DNA from: Escherichia coli
GTDB taxonomy: Bacteria; Pseudomonadota; Gammaproteobacteria; Enterobacterales; Enterobacteriaceae
NCBI RefSeq assembly: GCF_013315695.1
Contig: NZ_CP054353.1
DNA: 64,000 bases
Strand: one strand, 5' to 3'
In this document: positions 2,398 to 49,004 of the stretch, in pieces
How the letters are laid out: each line of letters starts with the position of its first letter
How positions within the stretch are numbered: the first letter of the stretch is position 1
Position numbers and translations under genes: made by a program
The notes under the pieces: generated by a model
The model's database searches: none
Told to the model about the DNA's origin: nothing
Seen by the model: the letters and a program-made list of their open reading frames with translations, nothing else

Positions 2398-2671
2398 TAT
2401 CACCAGGAGCCGCGGCTCCTTTGCGTATCCTTTTTTGTCTCCTCACCGTCTGGTCGGTGTCCTGCTGAGACTGCTAACTTCCTGTTTTTATTGGTGTTGT
2501 CCTTACACCGTCCAATCATGATTGGCTGGCGGAGTTTGAATAAATATTGTATTACTTTGATTTTTAATGATTTTGTTTGATTCAGTTTTTGTGCGTATAC
2601 CTAATCGTATACCAATGGCTGTAAGTTAATGTGAAATGAAAGCGCATTTTTACTTGGATTGATGCTATATC

Positions 2672-2990
2672 GTACAGGAAAAAAATTTTTTTTCGAAAGA
2701 ACTGTTCACACTGTTCACCTTTCTTTTTTCTCCTTTTATTTCATAGTGATAGGTGGTGAATAATGGGTGAAGGGTGAACATTCGATTCTTCACCTCCGGC
2801 ATTCTGCCGGTGTGACTTGTGCAGGGGATTAATTTCCCGTGCTGAAATCACACCGGAAGAAAAAAGTTTTTTTTGATTTGATTGTTCACACTGTTCACCT
2901 TTCGTTTTTCTCTTTTAATTTCAGTGTGATAACGGGTGAATATACGGTGAAGGGTGAACAGTGGATTGTTCACCTTCGGGGGATTCAGGG
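2672..2990. repeat. crr-like region: two ~120-bp direct repeats each carrying several TGTTCACC/GGTGAACA octamer iterons
   Basis: Units at about 2701-2810 and 2881-2990 are near-identical (ctgttcacactgttcaccttt...ggtgaa...gggtgaaca...ttcacc), each preceded by an A/T-run; sits just downstream of the alpha gene as P4 crr does. Confidence 0.75.
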
Positions 2991-2995
2991 ATAAA

Positions 2996-3024
2996 AAAAG
3001 ACCGGCAGATGCCGGTCAGATGAG
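2996..3024 (-). terminator. Rho-independent terminator downstream of the alpha gene
   Basis: gaccggca/tgccggtc hairpin followed by a T-run on the minus strand, immediately after the alpha stop. Confidence 0.5.
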
Positions 3025-3033
3025 TCATGATGG

Positions 3034-5367
3034 TCAGGTTGTTGCAGGGTCGTCACATTTTGGCAGCCAGTCGCCGTAGCTTTCCTCTTTCAGCGTCAGG
3101 TTGGTCTGTATCCCCTGTTTGGTATGGCGCTTCTCGTAATTCAGTCCGTATTCCTTCAGCATCACCGGCAGCCCCAGCCCGAACATTTTCAGACTGAGTA
3201 CATTCCGGTAGCCGTTTGCCTCCATGTAGGCCAGATAGGCGTGATAGAGGTATTTACGGTAATTACGCGGGATGATACTGGCGTTCCCCATATACATGCC
3301 GCTGGTCTGCAGCAGGGTTTCCAGATAGCCGATAAAATCAAACGTCGGGTCGGCATCCCGTTTGATGTTCAGTGCCTCGTCTGAGTTCTGCTGGGACTGA
3401 AGCAGTGACCGGGCGAGCATCGGGTCGCTGAACTTCTGCATCAGGTGACGCACGATGACCGCCAGCTCGCGGGTGATTTTGTCCTTAAGCTGCGGGTCGC
3501 GCTCCTGCGGGGCTATCTGTTCCGGGAAGTGAATAATCACCCGCCGGCGTGACACGCCGCCGCTGCGGTCGGTGAAGCGCATCGGGTTATTGTTCACGGC
3601 CAGAATCACCGCCGGGATGTGCGTGGAGTACGCATCCCGGTATTTCGGGTCAACGGACACTGCATCGCCGCCGGTGATGGCCTTGAGTCCGGCTCCGTCG
3701 CCGCTCCATTTTTCCTGGTCCGGCAGGCGTATCAGTGAGAAGCCAGTTAACGCGGCACGTTCACGCGGGGATTCCAGCGTCTCGATGGTGGCCGACGTGG
3801 CGTTATCCTCACCGGCCAGCAGGGTGGCGATTTCGGCCATGATACTTTTGCCGCTGCCGCCGGGACCGGTCACCTCCAGAAAGAGCTGCCAGTCGTAGCG
3901 GTTTGCCAGCACCATAAACAGTGCGGCCAGAATCACGTCGCGTTTTTCCGCACGGCCACCGGCGGCACGGTCAAGCCAGCGCCAGAACGCGGGGGCGTGG
4001 GTCTCCAGCGTTTCACCGTCCACCGGCGGGGTGAAATCCACATCGCACAGGGTGCGCATCCAGTGTGACGGACTGTGCGGATGGAACGTGCCGTTCTGCG
4101 TGTCGAGCACGCCGTTACGAAAGCCAATCAGGCGGCGGGAGGGGGCTTCCTGCTGCGGAATAATCAGTTTCAGGGTGTCCACCACGGAGGCCACCTTCCC
4201 GGAGGAGAACGGCGCGCGCAGACGCTGAAACAGCCCGGCCACATCCCGGGCAAAGTCCTGTGGCGGCAGCACCTTCCAGACACCATTTTCATAGCGGGAC
4301 AGAAGCTGGCCGTTGGCATCGACCGCGAGCGCCTCGCCGTAATGCTCATAGATACGCATGGCCTTTTCGCTGGTACTCATGGCGGAAAACTCTGCTTCGC
4401 TCATGGTGTCGAACGGGCTTTCAGCCGGTGGCCGGATGGCATCGTAAATGGCCTTACGGGTGGCCTCCCCGCCGTACTGCGTGAAGGCATCATTCCAGTC
4501 ACCGAAGACCGGCGGCAGGGCAACAACGCCCTCACACGCATCTGCGGCTGCGGCGGCTTTTTTCTGGCCGTCACCGCTGAGGTCACGGTCTGCGGCAAGG
4601 ACAATCTGACAGGCCGGATGCTTCTGCCGGGCAAGGCTGGCCAGAGAAAGGAGGTTCACGGAAGAAAGCGCCACCATCACCGTTTCACCGGTCAGGTGAT
4701 GCACGGTAAGTGCGGTCGCGTATCCCTCCGCTATCCACAGACGTTTTCCGGCCTGATTCTGTCCTTCAAGGGTGTGACAGGTGCCCCTGACCTGTCCGCC
4801 TTTCAGGGTGCGCTTACGGCCGTCAGCACTGATTAACTGAAGGTTAACCAGTTCGCCGCTGTCGTCATACAGTGGCACCACAAGGTCACCGGCGCGCCAG
4901 CTCACGCCACCGGCTCTGTGTGTGCCGGTCAGCATCCGGCATTCCCGGCCGGGAAAGCCCTTGCGGGTCAGGTAGGCGTTACCGGTTCCGGGACGGGTTT
5001 TTGCCATCAGGGTTTGTGCCAGTGCGGCGGCGTTCTTCCGGGCAGCGTCTGTTTCAGCAACGGCGGCGGCCGTCACTGCCGGGTCAGCCGGGGGCAGGCT
5101 GCCGGTCACGGCAGCCACCTTTGCGGCCGCGTCGGACGGAGAGACACCAAACACCTTTCCAACCAGTTTCAGGCCGTCACCGGCACCACACTGATTGCAG
5201 TACCAGGTGCCGCGCCCCTCCCTGTCATCAAAACGGAAGCGGTCACTCCCGCCACAGACCGGACAGGGCTGATGACGGTTTTTCAGCACCTGAATCCCCA
5301 GCGCCGGGAGAATACGCGGCCAGTGGCCGAGCGCATGGCTGACGGTGGCGGTTACGTTCATTTTCAT
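3034..5367 (-). CDS. P4 alpha-type bifunctional primase/helicase (777 aa)
   Basis: N-terminal zinc-binding motif CPVCGG...YCNQCG, central primase region, C-terminal P-loop helicase (GPGGSGKS); size and position match P4 alpha. Confidence 0.9.
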   Translation of the reverse strand: MKMNVTATVSHALGHWPRILPALGIQVLKNRHQPCPVCGGSDRFRFDDREGRGTWYCNQCGAGDGLKLVGKVFGVSPSDAAAKVAAVTGSLPPADPAVTAAAVAETDAARKNAAALAQTLMAKTRPGTGNAYLTRKGFPGRECRMLTGTHRAGGVSWRAGDLVVPLYDDSGELVNLQLISADGRKRTLKGGQVRGTCHTLEGQNQAGKRLWIAEGYATALTVHHLTGETVMVALSSVNLLSLASLARQKHPACQIVLAADRDLSGDGQKKAAAAADACEGVVALPPVFGDWNDAFTQYGGEATRKAIYDAIRPPAESPFDTMSEAEFSAMSTSEKAMRIYEHYGEALAVDANGQLLSRYENGVWKVLPPQDFARDVAGLFQRLRAPFSSGKVASVVDTLKLIIPQQEAPSRRLIGFRNGVLDTQNGTFHPHSPSHWMRTLCDVDFTPPVDGETLETHAPAFWRWLDRAAGGRAEKRDVILAALFMVLANRYDWQLFLEVTGPGGSGKSIMAEIATLLAGEDNATSATIETLESPRERAALTGFSLIRLPDQEKWSGDGAGLKAITGGDAVSVDPKYRDAYSTHIPAVILAVNNNPMRFTDRSGGVSRRRVIIHFPEQIAPQERDPQLKDKITRELAVIVRHLMQKFSDPMLARSLLQSQQNSDEALNIKRDADPTFDFIGYLETLLQTSGMYMGNASIIPRNYRKYLYHAYLAYMEANGYRNVLSLKMFGLGLPVMLKEYGLNYEKRHTKQGIQTNLTLKEESYGDWLPKCDDPATT

Positions 5368-5381
5368 GGTGTTGTTCTCCT

Positions 5382-5702
5382 TCAGTGCAGTACCGGCGCT
5401 TTTATGTGACGGGCACAGAGTTCATCCATCACAACCAGCCCGAGAAAGGACAGCGACGGCGCGGCCTTCAGGGGGCCGGATTCCATTAAATCTTCCAGCA
5501 GGGCACAGGCTATCTGACGCCCTTTTTCCTCACCGTGCTGGCGCAGATAAAAGCCTTCCAGCTCAGCGGCGATGGCCGCCTCCAGTGACTCAAGGGTGAG
5601 ATGCGGGTAGCGGTGCTGACGTTCGCACACGGTCAGCCAGGCACAGGCGACAGCGCGACGGTAAAGGGCAGCACGTAAGACGGGCGGTAAGGGTGTTTTC
5701 AT
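5382..5702 (-). CDS. Hypothetical protein, 106 aa (P4 orf106-like position)
   Basis: ORF in operon orientation directly upstream of alpha; no recognisable motif. Confidence 0.5.
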
Positions 5703-5837
5703 TTGTTTTCCTCCCTGTGACAGATGACTGCATTCCGTGCCGGTTGCATTAACTGATAAGGCATATCTGCGTCTCCTGAAGACGTGCGTATCCCTGCGCG
5801 AATACGCACATTTAATTTTTCGGGTGTCGTTTTTTAA

Positions 5838-6293
5838 TTACAGATAATTGCGGTAACTGTTATCCGGGGTGATTTCCGGGTCAGGCTCCGTGCGGGGAAT
5901 TTCCCGCCATTCCCGCGCCACCGGTGCCGCCCGGCTGACCGGAACAGGGGCCTGCGGGTAAATATCCAGATATTTCTCCCGCCATTTCTGTAATTCCGGG
6001 TCTCCGGCCATTTCTTTCAGTACCGCATGCCGGTTTACGGGGCTGCGTTTAAACAGGTCAGGACGGTCACAGGTAAATTCCCGCAGAAAACGCCCCAGCG
6101 GGATGTCTGTGGTGCGCCCGTCAGCGAGGATACGCACAAGGATACTGAATTTACGGCGGTACGGGTTCCAGACAATGTCCGGGCAGCGGTACGGCATTTC
6201 CCACGGAATACCGTCTTCCAGAATGCCGACCACGGCCACATCGGGAAAACCGGCAGAACGGTAAATCTCACCGGGCTGGGGAAAATCAAACAT
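5838..6293 (-). CDS. Hypothetical protein, 151 aa (P4 orf151-like position)
   Basis: ORF co-oriented with alpha operon; size matches a P4 early-operon ORF. Confidence 0.5.
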   Translation of the reverse strand: MFDFPQPGEIYRSAGFPDVAVVGILEDGIPWEMPYRCPDIVWNPYRRKFSILVRILADGRTTDIPLGRFLREFTCDRPDLFKRSPVNRHAVLKEMAGDPELQKWREKYLDIYPQAPVPVSRAAPVAREWREIPRTEPDPEITPDNSYRNYL

Positions 6294-6573
6294 GCGTCTT
6301 GTCTCCCCGGTCTTTCTGCTGGGCGAGAAAATCGCGGCACAGGCCTTTGGCTTTCAGCTCATTCAGCACAAAATCAATATCTTCATTCAGGTAGCTGAAA
6401 ATATGCGGAATGTAGAGCTGATGCAGGCCGGAGAGTTCACGGTGAATCAAATCACCCCCAACAAACTGGGATACGGCGCTGGCGCGGTTGAGCTTATGGT
6501 AAGCCTCAATGCTGAGGTGTTCACGGGCGTCATGACGCGCTGAGACGGTCTGAGGGGCTTTTTTATTACGCAC
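6286..6573 (-). CDS. Hypothetical small protein, 95 aa with proposed GTG start (possible epsilon-like)
   Basis: GTG at 6571-6573 (rc) preceded by GGTGGAGG; ATG-initiated versions of this ORF have N-termini that look non-coding. Confidence 0.35.
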
Positions 6574-6763
6574 GGGACACCTCCACCACCGGCAGACGGG
6601 CAGCAAGGGAGAGCACATAGTCACGGACAAGGGAACGGCGGGCACTGCGTTCATCACCGGCGACGGTGCGAAGCATGCAGATACGGGGATGACGGTCTGC
6701 GCGACGGACAGCCGCAAACACAAAGACAAATTCAGGGTGTGAAGGGGTAAGGGTTGTAGCCAT
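6566..6763 (-). CDS. Hypothetical small protein, 65 aa
   Basis: ATG at 6761-6763 (rc) with GGAGG 9 nt upstream; C-terminal part of a longer ORF-track frame. Confidence 0.3.
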
Positions 6764-7161
6764 GATGGCAGCCTCCGTTAGATAGCAGGTTACGCTATCG
6801 CCGGAGTTTCCACGCTCGATGGCGATAGCCCAGACGGGGGTGGAAATACCGGCTCTAACGGATACCGGCCAGCCCGGAGGCTGCCCCGCCTGAGCTACCA
6901 TTGACTCTGCGGCATAATGAGCGGACGCGGGCAGGATGCACGGAGTTCCATCTGCTCGACTGACCACACACCACACCATAATCTGGCGCTCTGTGGCGTT
7001 GATTGCGACACAAAAAAAGACGCATGGCGCGTCATATGTCGCCGTTAGATTGCTCGGGTTTCCACGCCCGGCTGCCGATTTTGCGACAGCGGAAAAACTA
7101 TATCCGCAAATGCCGGAAAAAGGCAAGCCAGAAAAAGGGACTTTTTGCAGAACAGGCATCA

Positions 7162-7428
7162 TCATGCGTCGTACCCCCGTTTGCGTCCGGCAATGCGGCC
7201 GGCCATCCATGCGGTGACTTCAGAGTGCAGCCAGGCCACATTTTTACCGCCAAGACTCACCTGCGGCGGAAATTCCCCCTTACGGATGAGTTCGTAGATG
7301 GTCGAGCGTGACAGGCCGCACAGGTGCATCACTTCCGGAAGACGTAAAAAACGCTCCTGTGTGATGTCCGGCAGCGGCATCAGTGGCGTCACAGGGGCGG
7401 GAGACGGGGAAGAAAAAACAGCTTGCAT
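7162..7428 (-). CDS. AlpA/Vis-family transcriptional regulator (88 aa)
   Basis: Conserved AlpA-type HTH region (LRLPEV...[17 protein letters not shown]); same length as P4 Vis. Confidence 0.8.
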
Positions 7429-7706
7429 CGGGCTACCTCGTTAATGTCCATACAGCACCGGATAAGTCCGTCCGGCTTCGGGTAGCGCTTTATTTTGTGA
7501 ATATTTTCGGCAGACGCAACAGGGGGGATTTGTTCCGGCAGCCTTACAATGGCTGTGCATTTTTTGTACATCAGCGCCAGATAGCTTTAAAACGCTCTGG
7601 AAGGAGCTGGAAAAAATTATAGTGAAATACAAATTGTTTTTTCTTATTTATTTCAGTGAATTAATAAAAATAAAAAGTAATAAACAGCACAAAAAGCCCA
7701 TCAACG

Positions 7707-7811
7707 GGTGAACAGTGGTGAACAGACGGTGAACAGTCATTACTGCGATTGTTCACCCTTTAACTTACTGTATTACTTATCTTTTTTCTTATTGTGAACA
7801 GAGGTGAACAG
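7707..7811. repeat. ori-like iteron cluster (six GGTGAACA/TGTTCACC octamers)
   Basis: gggtgaacagtggtgaacagacggtgaacag ... gattgttcaccc ... ttgtgaacagaggtgaacag between the Vis-like gene and sid; same octamer as the crr-like repeats. Confidence 0.65.
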
Positions 7812-7980
7812 TAAAATATAAAAAAAACAAACAGTAAGCCGGTTTTTCCTGCGACCTTTTCCTGGCTTGCCGGTCGGAGGATGAGTCTCCTGTGTCAGGG
7901 CTGGCACATCTGCAATGCGTCGTGTTGTTGTCCGGTGTACGTCACAATTTTCTTAACCTGAAGTGACGAGGAACCGGAAA

Positions 7981-8715
7981 ATGTCTGACAACACCATCCC
8001 TGAATATCTGCAACCCGCGCTGGCACAACTGGAAAAGGCCAGAGCCGCCCATCTTGAGAACGCCCGCCTGATGGATGAGACCGTCACGGCCATTGAACGG
8101 GCAGAGCAGGAAAAAAATGCGCTGGCGCAGGCCGACGGAAACGACGCTGACGACTGGCGCACGGCCTTTCGTGCAGCCGGTGGTGTCCTGAGCGATGAGC
8201 TGAAACAGCGCCACATTGAGCGCGTGGCACGCCGGGAGCTGGTACAGGAATATGACAATCTGGCCGTGGTGCTGAATTTTGAACGCGAACGCCTGAAAGG
8301 GGCGTGTGACAGCACGGCCACCGCCTACCGGAAGGCACATCATCACCTTCTGAGTCTGTATGCAGAGCATGAGCTGGAACACGCCCTGAATGAAACCTGT
8401 GAGGCGCTTGTCCGGGCAATGCATCTGAGCATCCTGGTACAGGAAAATCCGCTCGCCAACACCACCGGCCATCAGGGCTACATCTCACCGGAAAAGGCTG
8501 TCATGCAGCAGGTGAAATCATCGCTGGAACAGAAAATAAAACAGATGCAAATCAGCCTCAGCGGTGAGCCGGTTCTCCGGCTGGCCGGACTGTCAGCGGC
8601 AACACTCCCGCACATGGATTATGAGGTGGCAGGCACACCGGCGCAGCGCAAGGTGTGGCAGGACAAAATAGACCAGCAGGGAGCAGAGCTGAAGGCCAGA
8701 GGACTGCTGTCATGA
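7981..8715 (+). CDS. sid: Sid-like capsid size-determination (external scaffold) protein, 244 aa
   Basis: Position first in the sid-delta-psu block; length equals P4 Sid; stop overlaps the delta start (ATGA). Confidence 0.6.
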   Translation: MSDNTIPEYLQPALAQLEKARAAHLENARLMDETVTAIERAEQEKNALAQADGNDADDWRTAFRAAGGVLSDELKQRHIERVARRELVQEYDNLAVVLNFERERLKGACDSTATAYRKAHHHLLSLYAEHELEHALNETCEALVRAMHLSILVQENPLANTTGHQGYISPEKAVMQQVKSSLEQKIKQMQISLSGEPVLRLAGLSAATLPHMDYEVAGTPAQRKVWQDKIDQQGAELKARGLLS

Positions 8716-9212
8716 TTTACTGCCCGTCGTGTGGACATGTTGCTCACACCCGCCGCGCACATTTCATGGACGATGGCACCAAGATAATGATTGCACAGTG
8801 CCGGAATATTTATTGCTCTGCGACATTTGAAGCGAGTGAAAGCTTTTTCTCTGACAGTAAAGATTCAGGAATGGAATACATTTCAGGCAAACAGAGATAC
8901 CGCGATTCACTGACTTCTGCCTCCGGCAGTATGAAACGCCCGAAAAGAATGCTTGTGACCGGATATTGTTGTCGGAGATGTAAAGGCCTTGCACTGTCAA
9001 GAACATCGAGGCGTCTGTCTCAGGAAGTCACCGAGCGTTTTTATGTGTGCACGGAGCCGGGTTGTGGTCTGGTGTTTAAAACGCTTCAGACCATCAACCG
9101 CTTCATTGTTCGCCCGGTCACGCCGGACGAACTGGCAGAAAGCCTGCATGAAAAACAGGAACTGCCGCCAGTACGGTTAAAAACACAATCATATTCGCTG
9201 CGTCTGGAATGA
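8712..9212 (+). CDS. delta: Delta late-gene activator (tandem Ogr-like zinc fingers), 166 aa
   Basis: Two Ogr-type Cys motifs (CPSCGHVAHTRR...C..C and a second CxxC...C block); length equals P4 Delta. Confidence 0.8.
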   Translation: MIYCPSCGHVAHTRRAHFMDDGTKIMIAQCRNIYCSATFEASESFFSDSKDSGMEYISGKQRYRDSLTSASGSMKRPKRMLVTGYCCRRCKGLALSRTSRRLSQEVTERFYVCTEPGCGLVFKTLQTINRFIVRPVTPDELAESLHEKQELPPVRLKTQSYSLRLE

Positions 9213-9285
9213 GGGCTGCCGGTTAACCCCGGCCGTCGCCGCACACCGTATTTTTATTCTTCAGCATGATGAGAAAGAGATAACG

Positions 9286-9858
9286 ATGGAAAGCACAGCC
9301 TTACAGCAGGCCTTTGACACCTGTCAGAATAACAAAGCAGCATGGCTGCAACGCAAAAATGAGCTGGCTGCGGCCGAACAGGAATATCTGCGGCTTCTGT
9401 CAGGAGAAGGCAGAAACGTCAGTCGCCTGGACGAATTACGCAATATTATCGAAGTCAGAAAATGGCAGGTGAATCAGGCCGCCGGTCGTTATATTCGTTC
9501 GCATGAAGCCGTTCAGCACATCAGCATCCGCGACCGGCTGAATGATTTTATGCTGCAGCACGGCACAGCACTGGCGGCCGCACTGGCACCGGAGCTGATG
9601 GGCTACAGTGAGCTGACGGCCATTGCCCGAAACTGTGCCATACAGCGTGCCACAGATGCCCTGCGTGAAGCCCTCCTGTCCTGGCTTGCGAAGGGTGAAA
9701 AAATTAATTATTCCGCACAGGATAGCGACATTTTAACGACCATCGGATTCAGGCCTGACGCGGCTTCGGTGGATGACAGCCGTGAAAAATTCACCCCTGC
9801 GCAGAACATGATTTTTTCGCGTAAAAGTGCGCAACTGGCATCACGTCAGTCTGTGTAA
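9286..9858 (+). CDS. psu: Psu-like polarity-suppression / capsid decoration protein, 190 aa
   Basis: Position after delta and length equal to P4 Psu. Confidence 0.65.
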   Translation: MESTALQQAFDTCQNNKAAWLQRKNELAAAEQEYLRLLSGEGRNVSRLDELRNIIEVRKWQVNQAAGRYIRSHEAVQHISIRDRLNDFMLQHGTALAAALAPELMGYSELTAIARNCAIQRATDALREALLSWLAKGEKINYSAQDSDILTTIGFRPDAASVDDSREKFTPAQNMIFSRKSAQLASRQSV

Positions 9859-10021
9859 AACTCCCCGAAAATCCGCCCGTTTTACTGAAAAAAGCCATGC
9901 ATCGATAAGGTGCATGGCTTTGCATGCGTTTTCCTGCCTCATTTTCTGTAAACCGTGCCATTCCCGGCGCGGTCTGAGCGTGTCAGTACAACTGCATTAA
10001 AACCGCCCCGCAAAGCGGGCG

Positions 10022-10040
10022 GGCGAGGCGGGGAAAGCAC
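10022..10040. other. cos site (cohesive end) of the P4-like element
   Basis: ggcgaggcggggaaagcac matches the P2/P4-family cohesive-end sequence as I recall it; located after psu as in P4. Confidence 0.6.
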
Positions 10041-10074
10041 TGCGCGCAGTATAAGAATTAAATAGGTATGGATT

Positions 10075-12033
10075 TTAAAATCCATCAAGTAGCTGATTGA
10101 TACCATTGCTCTCATCACAATTTATTTGCTCTAACTCAAATAAAGCACTGTCGTACTTTATTTGGGGAGTGTTTTCAAATGACAATAAAGATTCGATTAG
10201 TCTTATTTCTTTATCTTTATTTATGTCTTTAAGTGAGTCTAAAGTTAAATTGAATTTAACTTCGGGTTGTTTTCCTACTTCCATCATGATATTTGACTCC
10301 AACTCTGGATCAGTATTGAAGAATCGATGTGTCTTATGGAAATAACTAGGTTTTCTTGATTTTAAAATACTTAGTATATCCGACTTGATAGTGCTTTCCC
10401 GTGCTATCACAAGCCAATGGTTGGCAACCCCTGTGATGGTGGTAATGATGTGGGAGCCATTTTCACTTAGTTCATTAAAGGCTCTTAAGTCACCCTTGAA
10501 AAAATCATTTAGCAACTCATTTTCTTTATCTTTATCAAAAAGGTAAATTATTGAATTGCCGGCTAATGATATTTCAGCCTTGGTTTTTATAGTATCGCAA
10601 TTAAATTGCGCGGTCTCATTTTTTAATTCTTCGTAAGATGATTTTAAGTCTAAAAGCAAGCATTTTATTATACTTGATCTGAAAGATGAGTAATCAATAT
10701 CAGCACAAAGTGAAAATAAATTTCTGTGACGAATGGATTCAGGGCTGTAATATAGCTTTGTTAATATTTCTTTTTGGCGTTCTTTTGTGTCACGACAGAT
10801 AAACATAGCTGCAAAATATTCCATTAATGATTTGTGTGACCAACGAATAATAGCGCCTTCTTTGACAAATAATGGAACGGTTTCAATTAAGTCCTGAATA
10901 AAAAGAGATGGTGAAGTTGATATTCCGGGAATTTTTGAAATGATATTTTGCAATGTTATTTGCAGATCGTCTTTCGTAAACTCAATTTTACCTCCGTCTT
11001 TCAAACACCAAAAACCTAATCTCCTTAAGACCTGATGGAAGTCAGTGGAGTCTAGCTTAGAAAATTTTTCTCTAACATAACCAAGTTCTTTAGTTAAATC
11101 ATGAGACTCATACAAAGCGTCAAATACTTGGCTATAAAATAACTCTCTTTTTCTTGGTATTATCGGTTTGAATTTATATGCACAAAATAATAATGAAACA
11201 TAAAGAGGTGTGGATAAAAATTCATTTAGATTATGACCATTCTCCAGTCGTAATCCTTTAATTAATTGAGATGAAATAGGGCCACGTCCATCATATCGAC
11301 GTAATAGATCATACGCTTGATTCGTTTCTAATGGGTTGATTTTAAATCTTGAGAAACCATGTAGTTCTGATAAGAAATTATCATGACGAGAAGTTATAAT
11401 TATTTTGCTTTCTGAGAAATTATTAGCAAAGGTACTTAGTAAATTTACGATCTTGGATTTGAGTTGTTGTGGGATTTCATCTATGCCATCGAAAAGATAA
11501 ATAAAAGGGATTTTTTTGAGGCAGTTGTCTGAAATGTCTTCTCCTAAACCAAGTTGATGTTTCACCTGTAGCGCAAAATCATAATCTTTAGCACGTCGTA
11601 ATTCAATGTATATTGGAATGTATTCCTTATTAGCGATGCAATCTAAAGCAATTCTTTTCATTAGGGTGGACTTACCCATTCCTGCTGAGTCAGTGATTAA
11701 TATATGATTGAAATTATCTAATAAATCTGCATTGTCTTTTATTAGGCATGTGTATGGTTTTTTTTCATTATCGTAATAAATGCTCATTGGCTCATAAATA
11801 TCTAGAAGCTCTACTGGAGTATTTTGAAAAGCTAAGGTATTCACAAGGGAGCATTGCCCTTTCACATTTGATAGGAAACGTTCAAGATTTTTATTCAAGA
11901 AGCGTGCTGCATGTACATCTATTAAATAATTACGAACACTACTTTCTATGATAGGTAATATTTTATTCTTAATAACCTCCTTTGCCCATGGAAGGGATGC
12001 AGAGACTAATACATCAAGAGATACTGGTTGCAT
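10075..12033 (-). CDS. NACHT-type STAND NTPase (652 aa), candidate anti-phage protein in the P4 cargo slot
   Basis: Walker A GMGKST and NACHT-type Walker B LFDGIDE; long C-terminal helical region; strongly AT-rich versus flanks; sits between cos/psu and int. Confidence 0.75.
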   Translation of the reverse strand: MQPVSLDVLVSASLPWAKEVIKNKILPIIESSVRNYLIDVHAARFLNKNLERFLSNVKGQCSLVNTLAFQNTPVELLDIYEPMSIYYDNEKKPYTCLIKDNADLLDNFNHILITDSAGMGKSTLMKRIALDCIANKEYIPIYIELRRAKDYDFALQVKHQLGLGEDISDNCLKKIPFIYLFDGIDEIPQQLKSKIVNLLSTFANNFSESKIIITSRHDNFLSELHGFSRFKINPLETNQAYDLLRRYDGRGPISSQLIKGLRLENGHNLNEFLSTPLYVSLLFCAYKFKPIIPRKRELFYSQVFDALYESHDLTKELGYVREKFSKLDSTDFHQVLRRLGFWCLKDGGKIEFTKDDLQITLQNIISKIPGISTSPSLFIQDLIETVPLFVKEGAIIRWSHKSLMEYFAAMFICRDTKERQKEILTKLYYSPESIRHRNLFSLCADIDYSSFRSSIIKCLLLDLKSSYEELKNETAQFNCDTIKTKAEISLAGNSIIYLFDKDKENELLNDFFKGDLRAFNELSENGSHIITTITGVANHWLVIARESTIKSDILSILKSRKPSYFHKTHRFFNTDPELESNIMMEVGKQPEVKFNLTLDSLKDINKDKEIRLIESLLSFENTPQIKYDSALFELEQINCDESNGINQLLDGF

Positions 12034-12036
12034 GAA

Positions 12037-13245
12037 TTATACCTTATTTTCTACGTTTAAATTTTTGACCTTAAGTCCCCACCAGTTCATTAAATCGATT
12101 CTGGTATGTAAATATGTTGAGCGGTTATATGCTCTTCTAACTTCGTTTTTGTCAGAGTGCGCTAAAGCAGCTTCAATGACATCTGGGTTAAAACCTCTTT
12201 CATTCATGGCTGTACTTGCTATTGAACGTAGACCATGAGCAACCAGCTTCCCGCCATAACCAATACGTTTTAAAGCAGCATTAGCAGTTTGGCTATTCAT
12301 TGGCTGTTTTGGGTCATTTCTACTGGGAAAAACATGTTCACGATGAGCACTGATTGGTTTCATTACCTCCAGAATCTCTATTGCCTGAGGTGATAAAGGA
12401 ACAATGTGTTCCCGCTTAGCTTTCATCCGTTCGGCTGGAATAGTCCAGAGCTTTGCGTCAAGATCGATCTCTGCCCAACGAGCACCGGAAGCTTCAGAAG
12501 GGCGCACAAGGGTCAGAAGCTGCCACTCAATTAGACAGCGAGTCGAAACAGAGAGGTTCGACATCACCAAAGAGCGCATGAGTTTTGGTAATTCTTCAGG
12601 TCGTAGCGTTGGCATGTGTTGCTTTTTGGGTTTCTCAAATGCCATACCAATACCAGATGCCGGGTTTGCATCAATCAGGCCAGTGTTGACGGCGTAGATC
12701 ATGATTTCGTTAATACGCTGCACCAGTCGACGTACAGTCTCTAGCGCCCCACGTGCTTTGATTGGCTCAAGGGTTTCAACTAGTGTTCGGGCTTTGATTT
12801 GCTGGACAGGGATCTCCCCGATGACAGGGAATACGTCTTTTTCCAGTGACCGCCATATATCTTTAGCGTAATCGGGTGTAACGCTTTTGCTTTTGAGCTG
12901 GAACCAGTTAGCGGCGACCGTTGAAAAAATACTGTCCAGAGCGATTTGCTGCTGTTCCTCTGCAACTTCGGCCTGAATTTGCGGGTCAATTCCGTTGGCT
13001 AACAAAGCAAGGTAATCCGCTCTTAACCGTCGAGCATCAGCAAGTGAAAGGGCGGGGAAAGCACCAAGCCCCATCATTGTCCGCTGTTTTGTTGCTGGAC
13101 GTTGATAACGGAAACGCCACAACTTCTTACCGTTCGTTTTAACGAGCAGAAAAAGACCATCGCCATCATGTAACGTTAGATCCTTTTCTAACGCTCTAGC
13201 GCGCAGAACTTCTGTGCTGGTCAGGGGGCGTGTCGTTCTTGCCAC
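12037..13245 (-). CDS. int: P4-type tyrosine integrase (402 aa)
   Basis: P4 integrase-like N-terminus (...GLFLLV...G.K.WRFRY) and C-terminal catalytic region (...HGLR...RAYNRS); adjacent to ssrA-derived att core. Confidence 0.9.
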   Translation of the reverse strand: MARTTRPLTSTEVLRARALEKDLTLHDGDGLFLLVKTNGKKLWRFRYQRPATKQRTMMGLGAFPALSLADARRLRADYLALLANGIDPQIQAEVAEEQQQIALDSIFSTVAANWFQLKSKSVTPDYAKDIWRSLEKDVFPVIGEIPVQQIKARTLVETLEPIKARGALETVRRLVQRINEIMIYAVNTGLIDANPASGIGMAFEKPKKQHMPTLRPEELPKLMRSLVMSNLSVSTRCLIEWQLLTLVRPSEASGARWAEIDLDAKLWTIPAERMKAKREHIVPLSPQAIEILEVMKPISAHREHVFPSRNDPKQPMNSQTANAALKRIGYGGKLVAHGLRSIASTAMNERGFNPDVIEAALAHSDKNEVRRAYNRSTYLHTRIDLMNWWGLKVKNLNVENKV

Positions 13246-13366
13246 TGTGGCCGCTCCTTCATTAATTGGTATACGCGTTTAGGTAAACATCCTACCGTAT
13301 ACCTAAACGTATACCAATAATCACTGGATTTAGCTGGATATCCTCGGACAACGGTAGACACAAAAA

Positions 13367-13394
13367 AGCCCGCAGAGCTTGTGCCATGCGGGCT
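13367..13394 (-). terminator. Rho-independent terminator next to the internal att core
   Basis: agcccgca/tgcgggct hairpin with T-run on the minus strand, ~35 bp beyond the tmRNA-3'-end copy. Confidence 0.5.
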
Positions 13395-13429
13395 TTCAGG
13401 ATTTCTCCGGACGTATCCGGAAGAGCAAG

Positions 13430-13474
13430 TGGTGGAGCTGGCGGGAGTTGAACCCGCGTCCGAAATTCCTACAT
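13430..13474. repeat. Internal att core: 45-bp copy of the ssrA 3' end (junction between P4-like element and P2-like prophage)
   Basis: tggtggagctggcgggagttgaacccgcgtccgaaattcctacat is identical to 48642-48686. Confidence 0.9.
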
Positions 13475-13589
13475 ACCATTTTCACTATAACAAAAACATT
13501 AACTTGCGTTTAAAATCATCAAGTTAGTATTATCTTATGTTTGTCCGTTTTACTCATTTTTAATGCTCTGTCGCCAATCTGTCGCCACA

Positions 13590-14254: not shown

Positions 14255-15271
14255 TTAAATTAAGTTATAAAGAGGGTTTTTTGTTACTGCATCCTCCAGG
14301 TGGTCTGGAGAGAAGTGTGCATAAATCATCGTCATTTTAATATCTGAGTGCCCTAAAATATCACGTAAAACGAGTATGTTCCCACCGTTCATCATAAAAT
14401 GGCTGGCAAATGTATGGCGCAGGACGTGGGTGCATTGGCCTTCCGGTAGTTCAATACCGGCCCGTTTTACCGCCCGTTCAAAGGCTTTTCTGCATGGTGT
14501 GAATAATTTCCCTCGGTTTTTGGGTAGCTCGTTGTACAGATCCTGAGATATCGGTACGGTACGGTTTTTTTTACCCTTGGTCTTTGTATAGGTAATCCGG
14601 TATTTCGATAGTTGATGGCCCTGCAGGTTTTCAGCTTCACTCCAACGAGCACCGGTTGCTAGGCATATTTTTGCAATCATTAGCAGACTGGGGCTTTGAG
14701 AATCAGCACAGGCATCCAGCAGACGTTTAATTTCCTCCGGGGTTAGGAACGCCAGTTCACCCTCCGTAATTTTAAATGTTGGAAGCCCGGCAAGCGGGTT
14801 GGGGGCTGACCAGTGGCCCAGCTTTTTCAGTGTACCAAAAACAGATGATAGGTTGCGCTGTTCAAGGTTTACCGTGCGGGGCTTAACGGGTGACATGAAC
14901 GAGCCGTCTTCATTTTGGACCTCCCCCTTTAATCTGGCTTCCCGATATTTTGTGAAATCACCTGCTGTCAGCTCAGAGGCGATGGGATCGCCTAGACCAT
15001 TACAGATAATTCTAAGTTTCGCCATCAGGCGTTTGGGGTCTGCGAGTGTTTGACCATATAGGGAATACCACTGCTCAATCACTTCTGATAATCGCCGCCG
15101 ATCTTCCTTCTCACCAAGCCATGGCTTTTTGTTTACTTCGTTCATGGTGAAGTTTTCGAATGCTATGGCTTCGCCTTTCGTGGCAAATTGCTTACGCACG
15201 CGCTTGCCATTGCGTCCATTGGGATAGCACTCACACAACCATTTTCCGTTCGGCTGTTTTCTGATGGTCAT
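14255..15271 (-). CDS. int: P2-type tyrosine integrase (338 aa)
   Basis: Catalytic region motifs (...ARWSE...HVLRHTFASHF...LGHSDIKMTMIYAH); position next to att and repressor. Confidence 0.9.
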   Translation of the reverse strand: MTIRKQPNGKWLCECYPNGRNGKRVRKQFATKGEAIAFENFTMNEVNKKPWLGEKEDRRRLSEVIEQWYSLYGQTLADPKRLMAKLRIICNGLGDPIASELTAGDFTKYREARLKGEVQNEDGSFMSPVKPRTVNLEQRNLSSVFGTLKKLGHWSAPNPLAGLPTFKITEGELAFLTPEEIKRLLDACADSQSPSLLMIAKICLATGARWSEAENLQGHQLSKYRITYTKTKGKKNRTVPISQDLYNELPKNRGKLFTPCRKAFERAVKRAGIELPEGQCTHVLRHTFASHFMMNGGNILVLRDILGHSDIKMTMIYAHFSPDHLEDAVTKNPLYNLI

Positions 15272-48346: not shown

Positions 48347-48641
48347 GTGTATTTCACCCGAGGTTGAATAAAAGCCTACTACATCGCTATTTTACCATTC
48401 AATTTTATCATTAGCAGATTCCAATGAAGAAGATACTTCTGGTTTATCTAATGAAAATTGTGAAGTAAAAGTAGGATACTTCATTCTTCTGCAGTGAGGG
48501 GGGCGTGGATAACATTATAATTTCTTGTTGTATAGCCTTTTCGGGAAAGAGCAGACAAGATTTACATAAAACTCTGTCGCCATTTTGCCGCCACTTCCAA
48601 AGAAAAAGGGGCTACGCTTTCACGTAACCCCTTGATTTATT

Positions 48642-48686
48642 TGGTGGAGCTGGCGGGAGTTGAACCCGCGTCCGAAATTCCTACAT
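48642..48686. repeat. attR core: 3' end of ssrA, identical to 13430-13474
   Basis: 45-bp exact direct repeat. Confidence 0.9.
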
Positions 48687-49004
48687 CCTCGGTACTACAT
48701 GCTTAGTCAGTCTTTACATTCGCTTGCCAGCTGCGGACGGACACGCCACTAACAAACTAGCCTGATTAAGTTTTAACGCTTCAACCCCAGGCAGGGCTTC
48801 CACGCGATCTCTTTTGGGTTTGACCTCTCTTGATCCCCGTCCTAAGAGCGGAGGCTAGGGAGAGAGGGCTCTAAGCAGGTTATTAAGCTGCTAAAGCGTA
48901 GTTTTCGTCGTTTGCGACTATTTTTTGCGGCTTTTTACGAGGCCAACCGCCCCTCGGCATGCACCTTGGGTTTCGCAAATCCCGTCGAATCCAGAATCAG
49001 CCCC
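48642..49004 (-). ncRNA. ssrA: tmRNA (SsrA RNA), 363 nt
   Basis: Reverse complement begins GGGGCTGATTCTGGATTCGACGGG and ends GGGTTCAACTCCCGCCAGCTCCACCA; tag ORF region (GCAAACGACGAAAACTACGCTTTAGCAGCTTAA) present. Confidence 0.97.

Follow-up and report, generated by a model that had tools for sequence, protein, structure and literature searches.

Octamer repeats at both ends of a P4-like satellite in Escherichia coli as likely arm-type sites of its ssrA-targeting integrase

What are the short repeats that stand at both ends of a P4-like element in Escherichia coli, and which protein would recognise them? This question is raised by a stretch of 64,000 nucleotides from contig NZ_CP054353.1 (assembly GCF_013315695.1), referred to here as the 64-kb window, which contains a P4-like satellite at approximately 2523-13444. 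A sequence-only reading of this stretch had described an octamer in direct and inverted copies at both ends of the element, and had likened the copies to binding sites of an integrase or of a Vis/AlpA protein that mark the likely attL and attR arms. The strings quoted in that reading were found at the coordinates it gave, and an exact-match scan confirmed direct copies at both ends and an inverted copy at the int end. The octamer, CGTATACC, occurs five times in the window: at 2594-2601 (+), 2606-2613 (+), 13268-13275 (-), 13296-13303 (+) and 13308-13315 (+). All five copies lie within the two arms and none in the rest of the 64 kb, so the octamer is not similarly frequent elsewhere in this DNA. 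Dinucleotide-preserving shuffles contained 0.83 copies on average and four at most, and none of the 100 shuffles reached five. The shared sequence is longer than the octamer first noticed. A 23-mer, CGTATACCTAANCGTATACCAAT, made of two 12-bp units in tandem, stands without mismatches at both 2594-2616 and 13296-13318, where zero such pairs are expected. A further degenerate site (GGTAAACA, 13282-13289) had escaped the sequence-only reading; most relatives read GGTATACA at this place.

The explanation that we favour, with a probability of roughly 85%, is that each CGTATACC word would be the conserved middle of a 12-bp arm-type site, to which the N-terminal domain of the integrase (Int) encoded by the element itself would bind. 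Directly established are the motif, its layout, its conservation, its co-variation with the type of integrase and an intact attP. The integrase is an ssrA-targeting member of the P4 family, with 37% identity to P4 Int and 61% to the IntA protein of CP4-57. Like a heterobivalent tyrosine integrase, it has an N-terminal arm-binding domain beside core-binding and catalytic domains: Arm-DNA-bind_3 (PF13356) was matched with an E-value of 1.5e-22, PF22022 and PF00589 were matched as well, and residues 8-94 match the solved arm-type binding domains 3JU0 (E-value of 7e-17) and 3JTZ. The repeats occur on both sides of the core, inside the element and distinct from the core itself (repeats at 13265-13318 and 2592-2616; cores at 13430-13444 and 2523-2540). 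Together, the arm domain of Int, the P4-like positions of the sites, their placement on both sides, their conservation and the intact attP of a circularly permuted relative bear out the earlier suggestion of arm-type integrase sites marking attL and attR.

We compared the locus with the attP annotation of P4 (NC_001609/X51522), which gives Int, the arm sequence repeats and a 20-bp core in the tRNA-Leu gene leuX. This comparison, which the sequence-only reading had called for, placed the CGTATACC units at the positions of the annotated P4 arm repeats (Table 1). In both elements the arm units are 12 bp long, an inverted unit lies at the start of int, tandem pairs lie on both sides, four phased YGGAY-type repeats follow the first pair, and the core starts at the CCA end of the target RNA gene. 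The backbone of crr, alpha, epsilon, cI, vis, ori, sid, delta, psu and cos is shared at 97.4% identity. In contrast, the arm word is ATGCCCCCAA in P4 and CGTATACC(W)A in this element, the core and target are leuX in P4 and ssrA (TGGTGGAGCTGGCGG) here, and the two integrases are only 37% identical. The start codon overlaps the inverted site in P4, whereas here int starts 20 nt beyond it. The second inverted site is found in this element only, and the cargo differs as well, being a NACHT protein between cos and int here and gop/beta/cII in P4.

CP4-57 of E. coli K-12, which encodes IntA and AlpA, resembles the element in other respects. It also targets the 3' end of ssrA, has a distal core of the type TGGTGG-GCTGGCGG-AGTCTGAA and a more similar Int (61% identity), and carries an inverted unit and a tandem pair near intA as well as a tandem pair at its far end. 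It differs in its arm word (TGGGCCTA/TGGTCCTA) and in being an island of 22 kb that lacks the genes of P4 for replication and capsid size. A five-way alignment placed the P4 12-mers (AGATGCCCCCAA TTATGCCCCCAA), those of CP4-57 (GTTGGGCCTATC AATGGGCCTAAA) and the units of this element in the same columns, and the corresponding pair at the far end of CP4-57 reads TTTTGGTCCCAT TGTTGGTCCTAA. At these shared positions the words are ATGCCCCCAA in P4, TGGGCCTA/TGGTCCTA at both ends of CP4-57 and CGTATACC in this element. Three related integrases thus have three different words in one common architecture, and the motif co-varies with the integrase and not with the other proteins of the element.

A more distant parallel is offered by the lambda-type integrases and the IntS/TorI system of KplE1. 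There, too, the N-terminal domain acts on arm-type sites and the C-terminal domain on the core, the arm sites overlap the int promoter, which leads to autoregulation, and the phased direct repeats on which a directionality factor acts lie between arm sites and core. These systems differ from the present one in integrase subfamily, in the class of arm-binding fold (PF13356 here) and in the sequences, numbers and spacings of the sites.

Conservation of the sites was assessed in two sets of relatives. A scan of viral contigs with the 23-mer yielded 70 loci, which were ascertained by the motif and were therefore used only for what the search pattern did not force; the distal-arm conservation profile of this set is circular at the motif and served for spacing only. 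The second set was ascertained through the integrase protein (Int 84-99% identical) and comprised 50 unique upstream regions. The exact tandem pair was present in 42 of these regions, while seven of the other eight had one mismatch and one was a deletion variant. The int-proximal inverted site was present in 49/50. The columns that vary among relatives lie in the spacers between the sites. Among 5,426 complete E. coli genomes, approximately 396 carry this int-proximal arm.

The distal pair starts exactly 68 nt past CTGGCGG in all of the 11 elements for which both ends were captured, despite divergence of the spacer. The search pattern had matched the int-proximal arm alone in seven of these elements and the distal arm alone in two (L019 and L053), and the unmatched arm still has the pair. 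L019 and L053 lie beside clearly different ssrA sequences, and in both of them the pair is kept in both arms while the flanks have diverged.

An intact attP was found in a relative contig of 10,182 bp (L074), the ends of which abut within the alpha gene, showing that it is circularly permuted. Its order is GGTATACG ... GGTATACA, CGTATACCTAAACGTATACCAAT, 112 nt, TGGTGGAGCTGGCGG/AGTCTGAA, a spacer, TGGTATACCTAAGCGTATACCAAT and the crr iterons. This is exactly the attP predicted from joining the two ends of the element in the window, whose excised-circle junction is predicted to read ...gaagagcaagTGGTGGAGCTGGCGGAGTTTGAATAAAT.... The contig documents a sequence arrangement and not necessarily a free circle, as the junction of two tandem copies would look alike.

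The sequence-only reading could not recognise the distal copy of the core. It is located at 2523-2540, right after the ypjA flank (catgat TGG CTGGCGG AGTTTGAA). At the empty site of strain ET82, ypjA directly abuts ssrA (...catgat/TGGTGGAGCTGGCGGGAGTTGAA). Strain MLI023K1 carries the same element alone between ypjA and an intact ssrA, and its distal junction reads catgatTGGGCTGGCGGAGTTTGAA (TGGGCTGGCGGAGTTTGAA); the distal junction of CP4-57 in K-12 reads catgatTGGTGGGCTGGCGGAGTCTGAA (TGGTGGGCTGGCGGAGTCTGAA). After comparison with the empty site and the sister elements, an ungapped placement of the distal core (13/17 matches, 2524-2540) was replaced by one with a 5-nt gap. In this placement the window copy lacks five nucleotides of the ssrA 3' end (TGG-CTGGCGG versus TGGTGGAGCTGGCGG) and keeps CTGGCGG. 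The distal cores of sister elements lack four ssrA-end nucleotides (MLI023K1) or one (CP4-57 of K-12 and many of the viral-contig loci). Excision of CP4-57 is reported to delete T357 of ssrA (PMC10107115). T357 corresponds to the A that is absent from the CP4-57 distal junction, which places the crossover inside GCTGGCGG. As known for CP4-57 and its T357 deletion, precise excision directly beside ssrA would shorten the acceptor stem. The core TGGTGGAGCTGGCGG itself is common to the attP of L074, to ssrA and to the int-proximal junction, and so equals the 3' end of the target gene, which lets integration rebuild that gene.

From this layout we infer binding by Int, bridging of the arms to the core, and autoregulation. 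The excised attP would contain, in order, int, the two inverted sites, the tandem pair, 112 nt with the four phased YGGAY repeats and a hairpin, and the core TGGTGGAGCTGGCGG, followed by an AT-rich spacer of about 60 nt, the second tandem pair and crr. Int would bind an arm site through its N-terminal domain and the core through its catalytic domain, and would thereby bridge the arms to the core in an intasome in which attP recombines with the ssrA 3' end. As integration splits attP, the prophage has one cluster of sites on the left (2592-2616) and the other on the right (13265-13318). By analogy with P4, whose Int is reported to repress its own promoter (PMC7286903), the four sites by the start of int would probably also let Int repress its own gene.

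Several observations weigh against this explanation. Most of the relatives are close (Int 84-99%), and part of the conservation reflects limited divergence. The arm-site role proposed for this Int rests on sequence, and the arm repeats of P4 are, as far as can be verified, sequence annotations too. A scan of 13200-13480 for the sigma-70 consensus found no promoter over the P arm, which weakens the case for autoregulation. The exact consensus of the integration host factor (IHF), WATCAANNNNTTR, has five matches in the window and none in either arm, and we claim no IHF site. The copy of the element in the window may also be impaired, as its distal core is 5 nt short and one of its four P-arm sites is degenerate. 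A weak promoter candidate that was picked by eye (8/12 matches; TTGGTA, 17 nt, TAGGAT, on the minus strand and overlapping the tandem pair) was not relied on.

Vis, an AlpA-family excisionase and late-gene regulator that is encoded in the element (PF05930), could in principle bind the octamers in place of the integrase, as the sequence-only reading had allowed. The sites lie just upstream of int, and P4 Vis reportedly binds in the attP region of P4 and represses Pint (PMC2603039, PMC7286903). However, Vis of this element is identical to P4 Vis at 87/88 residues, and yet P4 has ATGCCCCCAA at these positions of its attP, and no CGTATACC-like word was found in the P4 att region. The CGTATACC sites lie in DNA without P4 homology that was swapped together with int, as homology to P4 extends over 2680-10021 only. 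The distal pair at 2592-2616 falls outside it, and crr forms the boundary of the swapped int/att module on the distal side. A Vis that is the same as in P4 and a motif that resides in the int-swapped DNA indicate that the motif follows the integrase. Directionality factors typically act on direct repeats spaced by about one helical turn (PMC7498355), whereas the octamers have a period of 12 bp, occur in both arms, include inverted copies and do not co-vary with Vis. We therefore regard octamers bound by Vis as improbable. A better candidate for Vis stands alongside them, namely the four 10-bp-phased YGGAY repeats that the element has in common with P4, where they have the same layout right after the tandem pair (L001 3973-4007: CGGAT at 3973, CGGAC at 3983, CGGAA at 3993 and AGGAC at 4003). 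The GGATTT and CTCGGA columns of this array are invariant across P4, CP4-57 and this element, and the array is 93-100% conserved in relatives. The array at 13325-13359 would accordingly be a likelier set of Vis sites than the octamers. Upstream of vis (7450-7490), CCGGAT and GTCCGG are present but not phased.

The sites might instead serve only as operators for int transcription, bound by Int or by another repressor, with no role in recombination. This would suit the near-palindrome made by the four sites immediately upstream of the ribosome-binding site of int, and the reported repression of its own promoter by P4 Int (PMC7286903) points the same way. The second pair, however, lies beyond the core and 10.7 kb from int in the prophage, and its spacing from the core is invariant in 11 elements. 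A distal pair at a fixed spacing from the core fits the need of an intasome and not that of an operator, and the layout equals the P4 attP arms on both sides. We consider a purely regulatory role to be as improbable as binding by Vis, and note that operator and recombination roles are not exclusive, since the arm-site explanation includes autoregulation. Still less probable, and in our view very unlikely, is that the shared words repeat by chance, remain from homologous recombination between elements, or are replication iterons of the alpha protein. An 8-mer is short, and the distal pair is just 64 nt from crr, but none of the 100 shuffles reached five octamers and the expectation for the 23-mer pair is zero. 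The iterons of the alpha protein are TGTTCACC, and P4, with the same alpha, crr and ori (97% identical), lacks the motif in its att region. The conservation of the sites and of their fixed spacing in relatives beside clearly different ssrA sequences contradicts such an origin.

The arm-site explanation describes a textbook architecture of the P4/lambda type, an ordinary feature in a known kind of element, and it leaves the understanding of how such integrases work unchanged. What it adds is a precise placing of both ends and a full predicted attP for ssrA-integrating P4-like satellites of a common family. The distal core that had been missing is accounted for, and the way in which the locus was built up becomes visible, with the satellite first and a P2-family prophage then inserted between the satellite and ssrA. 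GTATACC in a 12-bp unit is a word that could serve to annotate such elements and to test recognition by the arm domain. A full-text literature search for the motif string returned unrelated primers only, and the searchable literature yielded no mention of the word of this ssrA-targeting integrase clade.

The comparison of P4, CP4-57 and this element also shows what is kept and what is changed. The spacings (112 nt and about 74 nt) and the 10-bp-phased YGGAY array are kept, while the 12-bp arm words and the core are changed. A tentative idea, to which we give less than even odds, is that the int/attP region of P4-like satellites is an exchangeable cassette on a fixed scaffold, in which arm words and core are swapped, the spacings and the YGGAY array are kept, and one Vis serves different integrases. 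If so, a single near-unchanged Vis (99% identical) could direct excision with integrases that are 37% identical and have different targets. Switching of targets would then need only the co-replacement of the N-terminal specificity of Int, the arm words and the core, with the excisionase being universal.

The element as a whole is a P4 hybrid, whose int and attachment module differs from that of P4 and targets ssrA. Its description as P4-like was upheld, as window positions 2680-10021 are 97.4% identical to P4 4291-11624. This stretch holds crr, alpha, orf106, epsilon, cI, vis, ori, sid, delta and psu, up to cos, and the left cos end of P4 continues at window position 10022. The element thereby has the gene set of a P4-like satellite (alpha primase-helicase, crr and ori iterons, vis, sid, delta, psu and cos). 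The part that does not derive from P4 comprises a NACHT/SNaCT5 gene, the integrase gene and, in the circular sense, the DNA from int to crr (13246-13444 and 2533-2679). The NACHT/SNaCT5 gene (10075-12033, minus strand) encodes a 652-aa protein with NACHT and SNaCT5 domains, at the place between cos and int that gop/beta/cII take up in P4. The protein is presumably anti-phage cargo; a comparison with PADLOC 2.0 gave no match.

The left flank of the element is chromosomal ypjA, and the sole intact gene for transfer-messenger RNA (tmRNA) in the window lies at 48642-49004 on the minus strand. The 35 kb between the element and ssrA (13475-48641) are a P2-family prophage that is 95% identical to Klebsiella phage Kp4849-2 and its relatives. 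The order of the locus is therefore ypjA, P4-like satellite, ssrA 3' copy, P2-like prophage and ssrA. The P4-like satellite must have integrated first, and the P2-family prophage later, between the satellite and ssrA. The first 15 nt of the ssrA copy (13430-13444, TGGTGGAGCTGGCGG) are the core that is common with the attP of the satellite, and the remainder of the 45-nt copy, past 13444, belongs to the neighbouring P2-family prophage as its distal junction. One attachment site thus holds a satellite and a possible helper in tandem.

Table 1. Features of the arms and attP region of the P4-like satellite, with window positions and the corresponding features annotated in P4.
Feature	Window position	Strand	P4	Remarks
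Distal att core remnant, TGG-CTGGCGG-AGTTTGAA (TGGCTGGCGGAGTTTGAA)	2523..2540	.		Junction of the chromosomal ypjA flank (ends ...catgat at 2522) with the element
Distal (P') arm, second tandem pair of 12-bp units, TGCGTATACCTA/ATCGTATACCAA/T	2592..2616	+	4151-4174 (aligned with 2592-2615)	Octamers at 2594 and 2606; starts 68 nt past CTGGCGG
Offset of second pair from core TGG	74 nt (in intact attP)		73 nt	
crr, two 120-bp direct repeats with TGTTCACC iterons	2680..2979	+	Start 4291 (aligned with 2680)	P4 annotation; first P4-homologous DNA
vis, AlpA-family excisionase/regulator	7162..7428	-		PF05930; 87/88 identical to P4 Vis
Integrase, 402 aa, GTG start after AAGGAG	12037..13245	-		Arm-DNA-bind_3, Phage_int_M and Phage_integrase domains
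P-arm site nearest to int, inverted (ATTGGTATACGCG on + = CGCGTATACCAAT on -)	13265..13277	-	3915-3926	Inverted arm repeat by the start of int
Second inverted P-arm site, degenerate (GGTAAACA; most relatives GGTATACA)	13280..13291	-	None	14 bp from the first inverted site
P-arm tandem 12-bp units, ACCGTATACCTA/AACGTATACCAA/T	13294..13318	+	3942-3965 (aligned with 13294-13317)	Octamers at 13296 and 13308; in register with the P4 and CP4-57 pairs
Gap from P-arm tandem pair (13294-13318) to core TGG	112 nt (exactly)		112 nt	
Four YGGAY repeats, 10-bp phase: TGGAT 13325, TGGAT 13335, CGGAC 13345, TAGAC 13355	13325..13359	+		Candidate Vis sites
Hairpin and T-run, element-supplied terminator downstream of the ssrA 3' end	13362..13397	-		Homologous to DNA downstream of ssrA in K-12
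Core	13430-13444		4078-4097	
45-nt ssrA 3'-end copy	13430..13474	-		Identical to 48642-48686 of the intact tmRNA gene

Some smaller observations concern the arms of relatives. An AATTCA(A/G)nTTT block, at 2570-2592 in the window and also present in relatives, lies 10-20 nt before the distal pair and is conserved among diverged spacers. It may be the site of a bending protein, and it does not match the strict IHF consensus. In one locus (L021, 789-5345) the distal and int-proximal arm sites are only about 4.4 kb apart; this is a much-reduced element in which both clusters are kept. In two other loci, the int-proximal arm of this integrase type is joined to a different kind of distal arm, which is of the CP4-57 type (TTGGTCCCAT TGTTGGTCCTAA) in L029 (10420-10760) and has the CGTGTACC variant in L024 (2100-2500). 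These two junctions suggest that mixed tandem arrays at ssrA are common and that a near-cognate arm word exists.

The P2-family prophage has end repeats of its own. Exact CTGTCGCCA occurs three times in the window, at the two ends of this prophage only (13568, 13579 and 48574). The repeats span 13568-13587 and 48574-48593, with TTGCCGCCA following at 48585. The integrase of the prophage (14255-15271, minus strand; Int_N and Phage_integrase domains) is encoded at the end distant from ssrA, and the CTGTCGCCA repeats are probably its arm-type sites.

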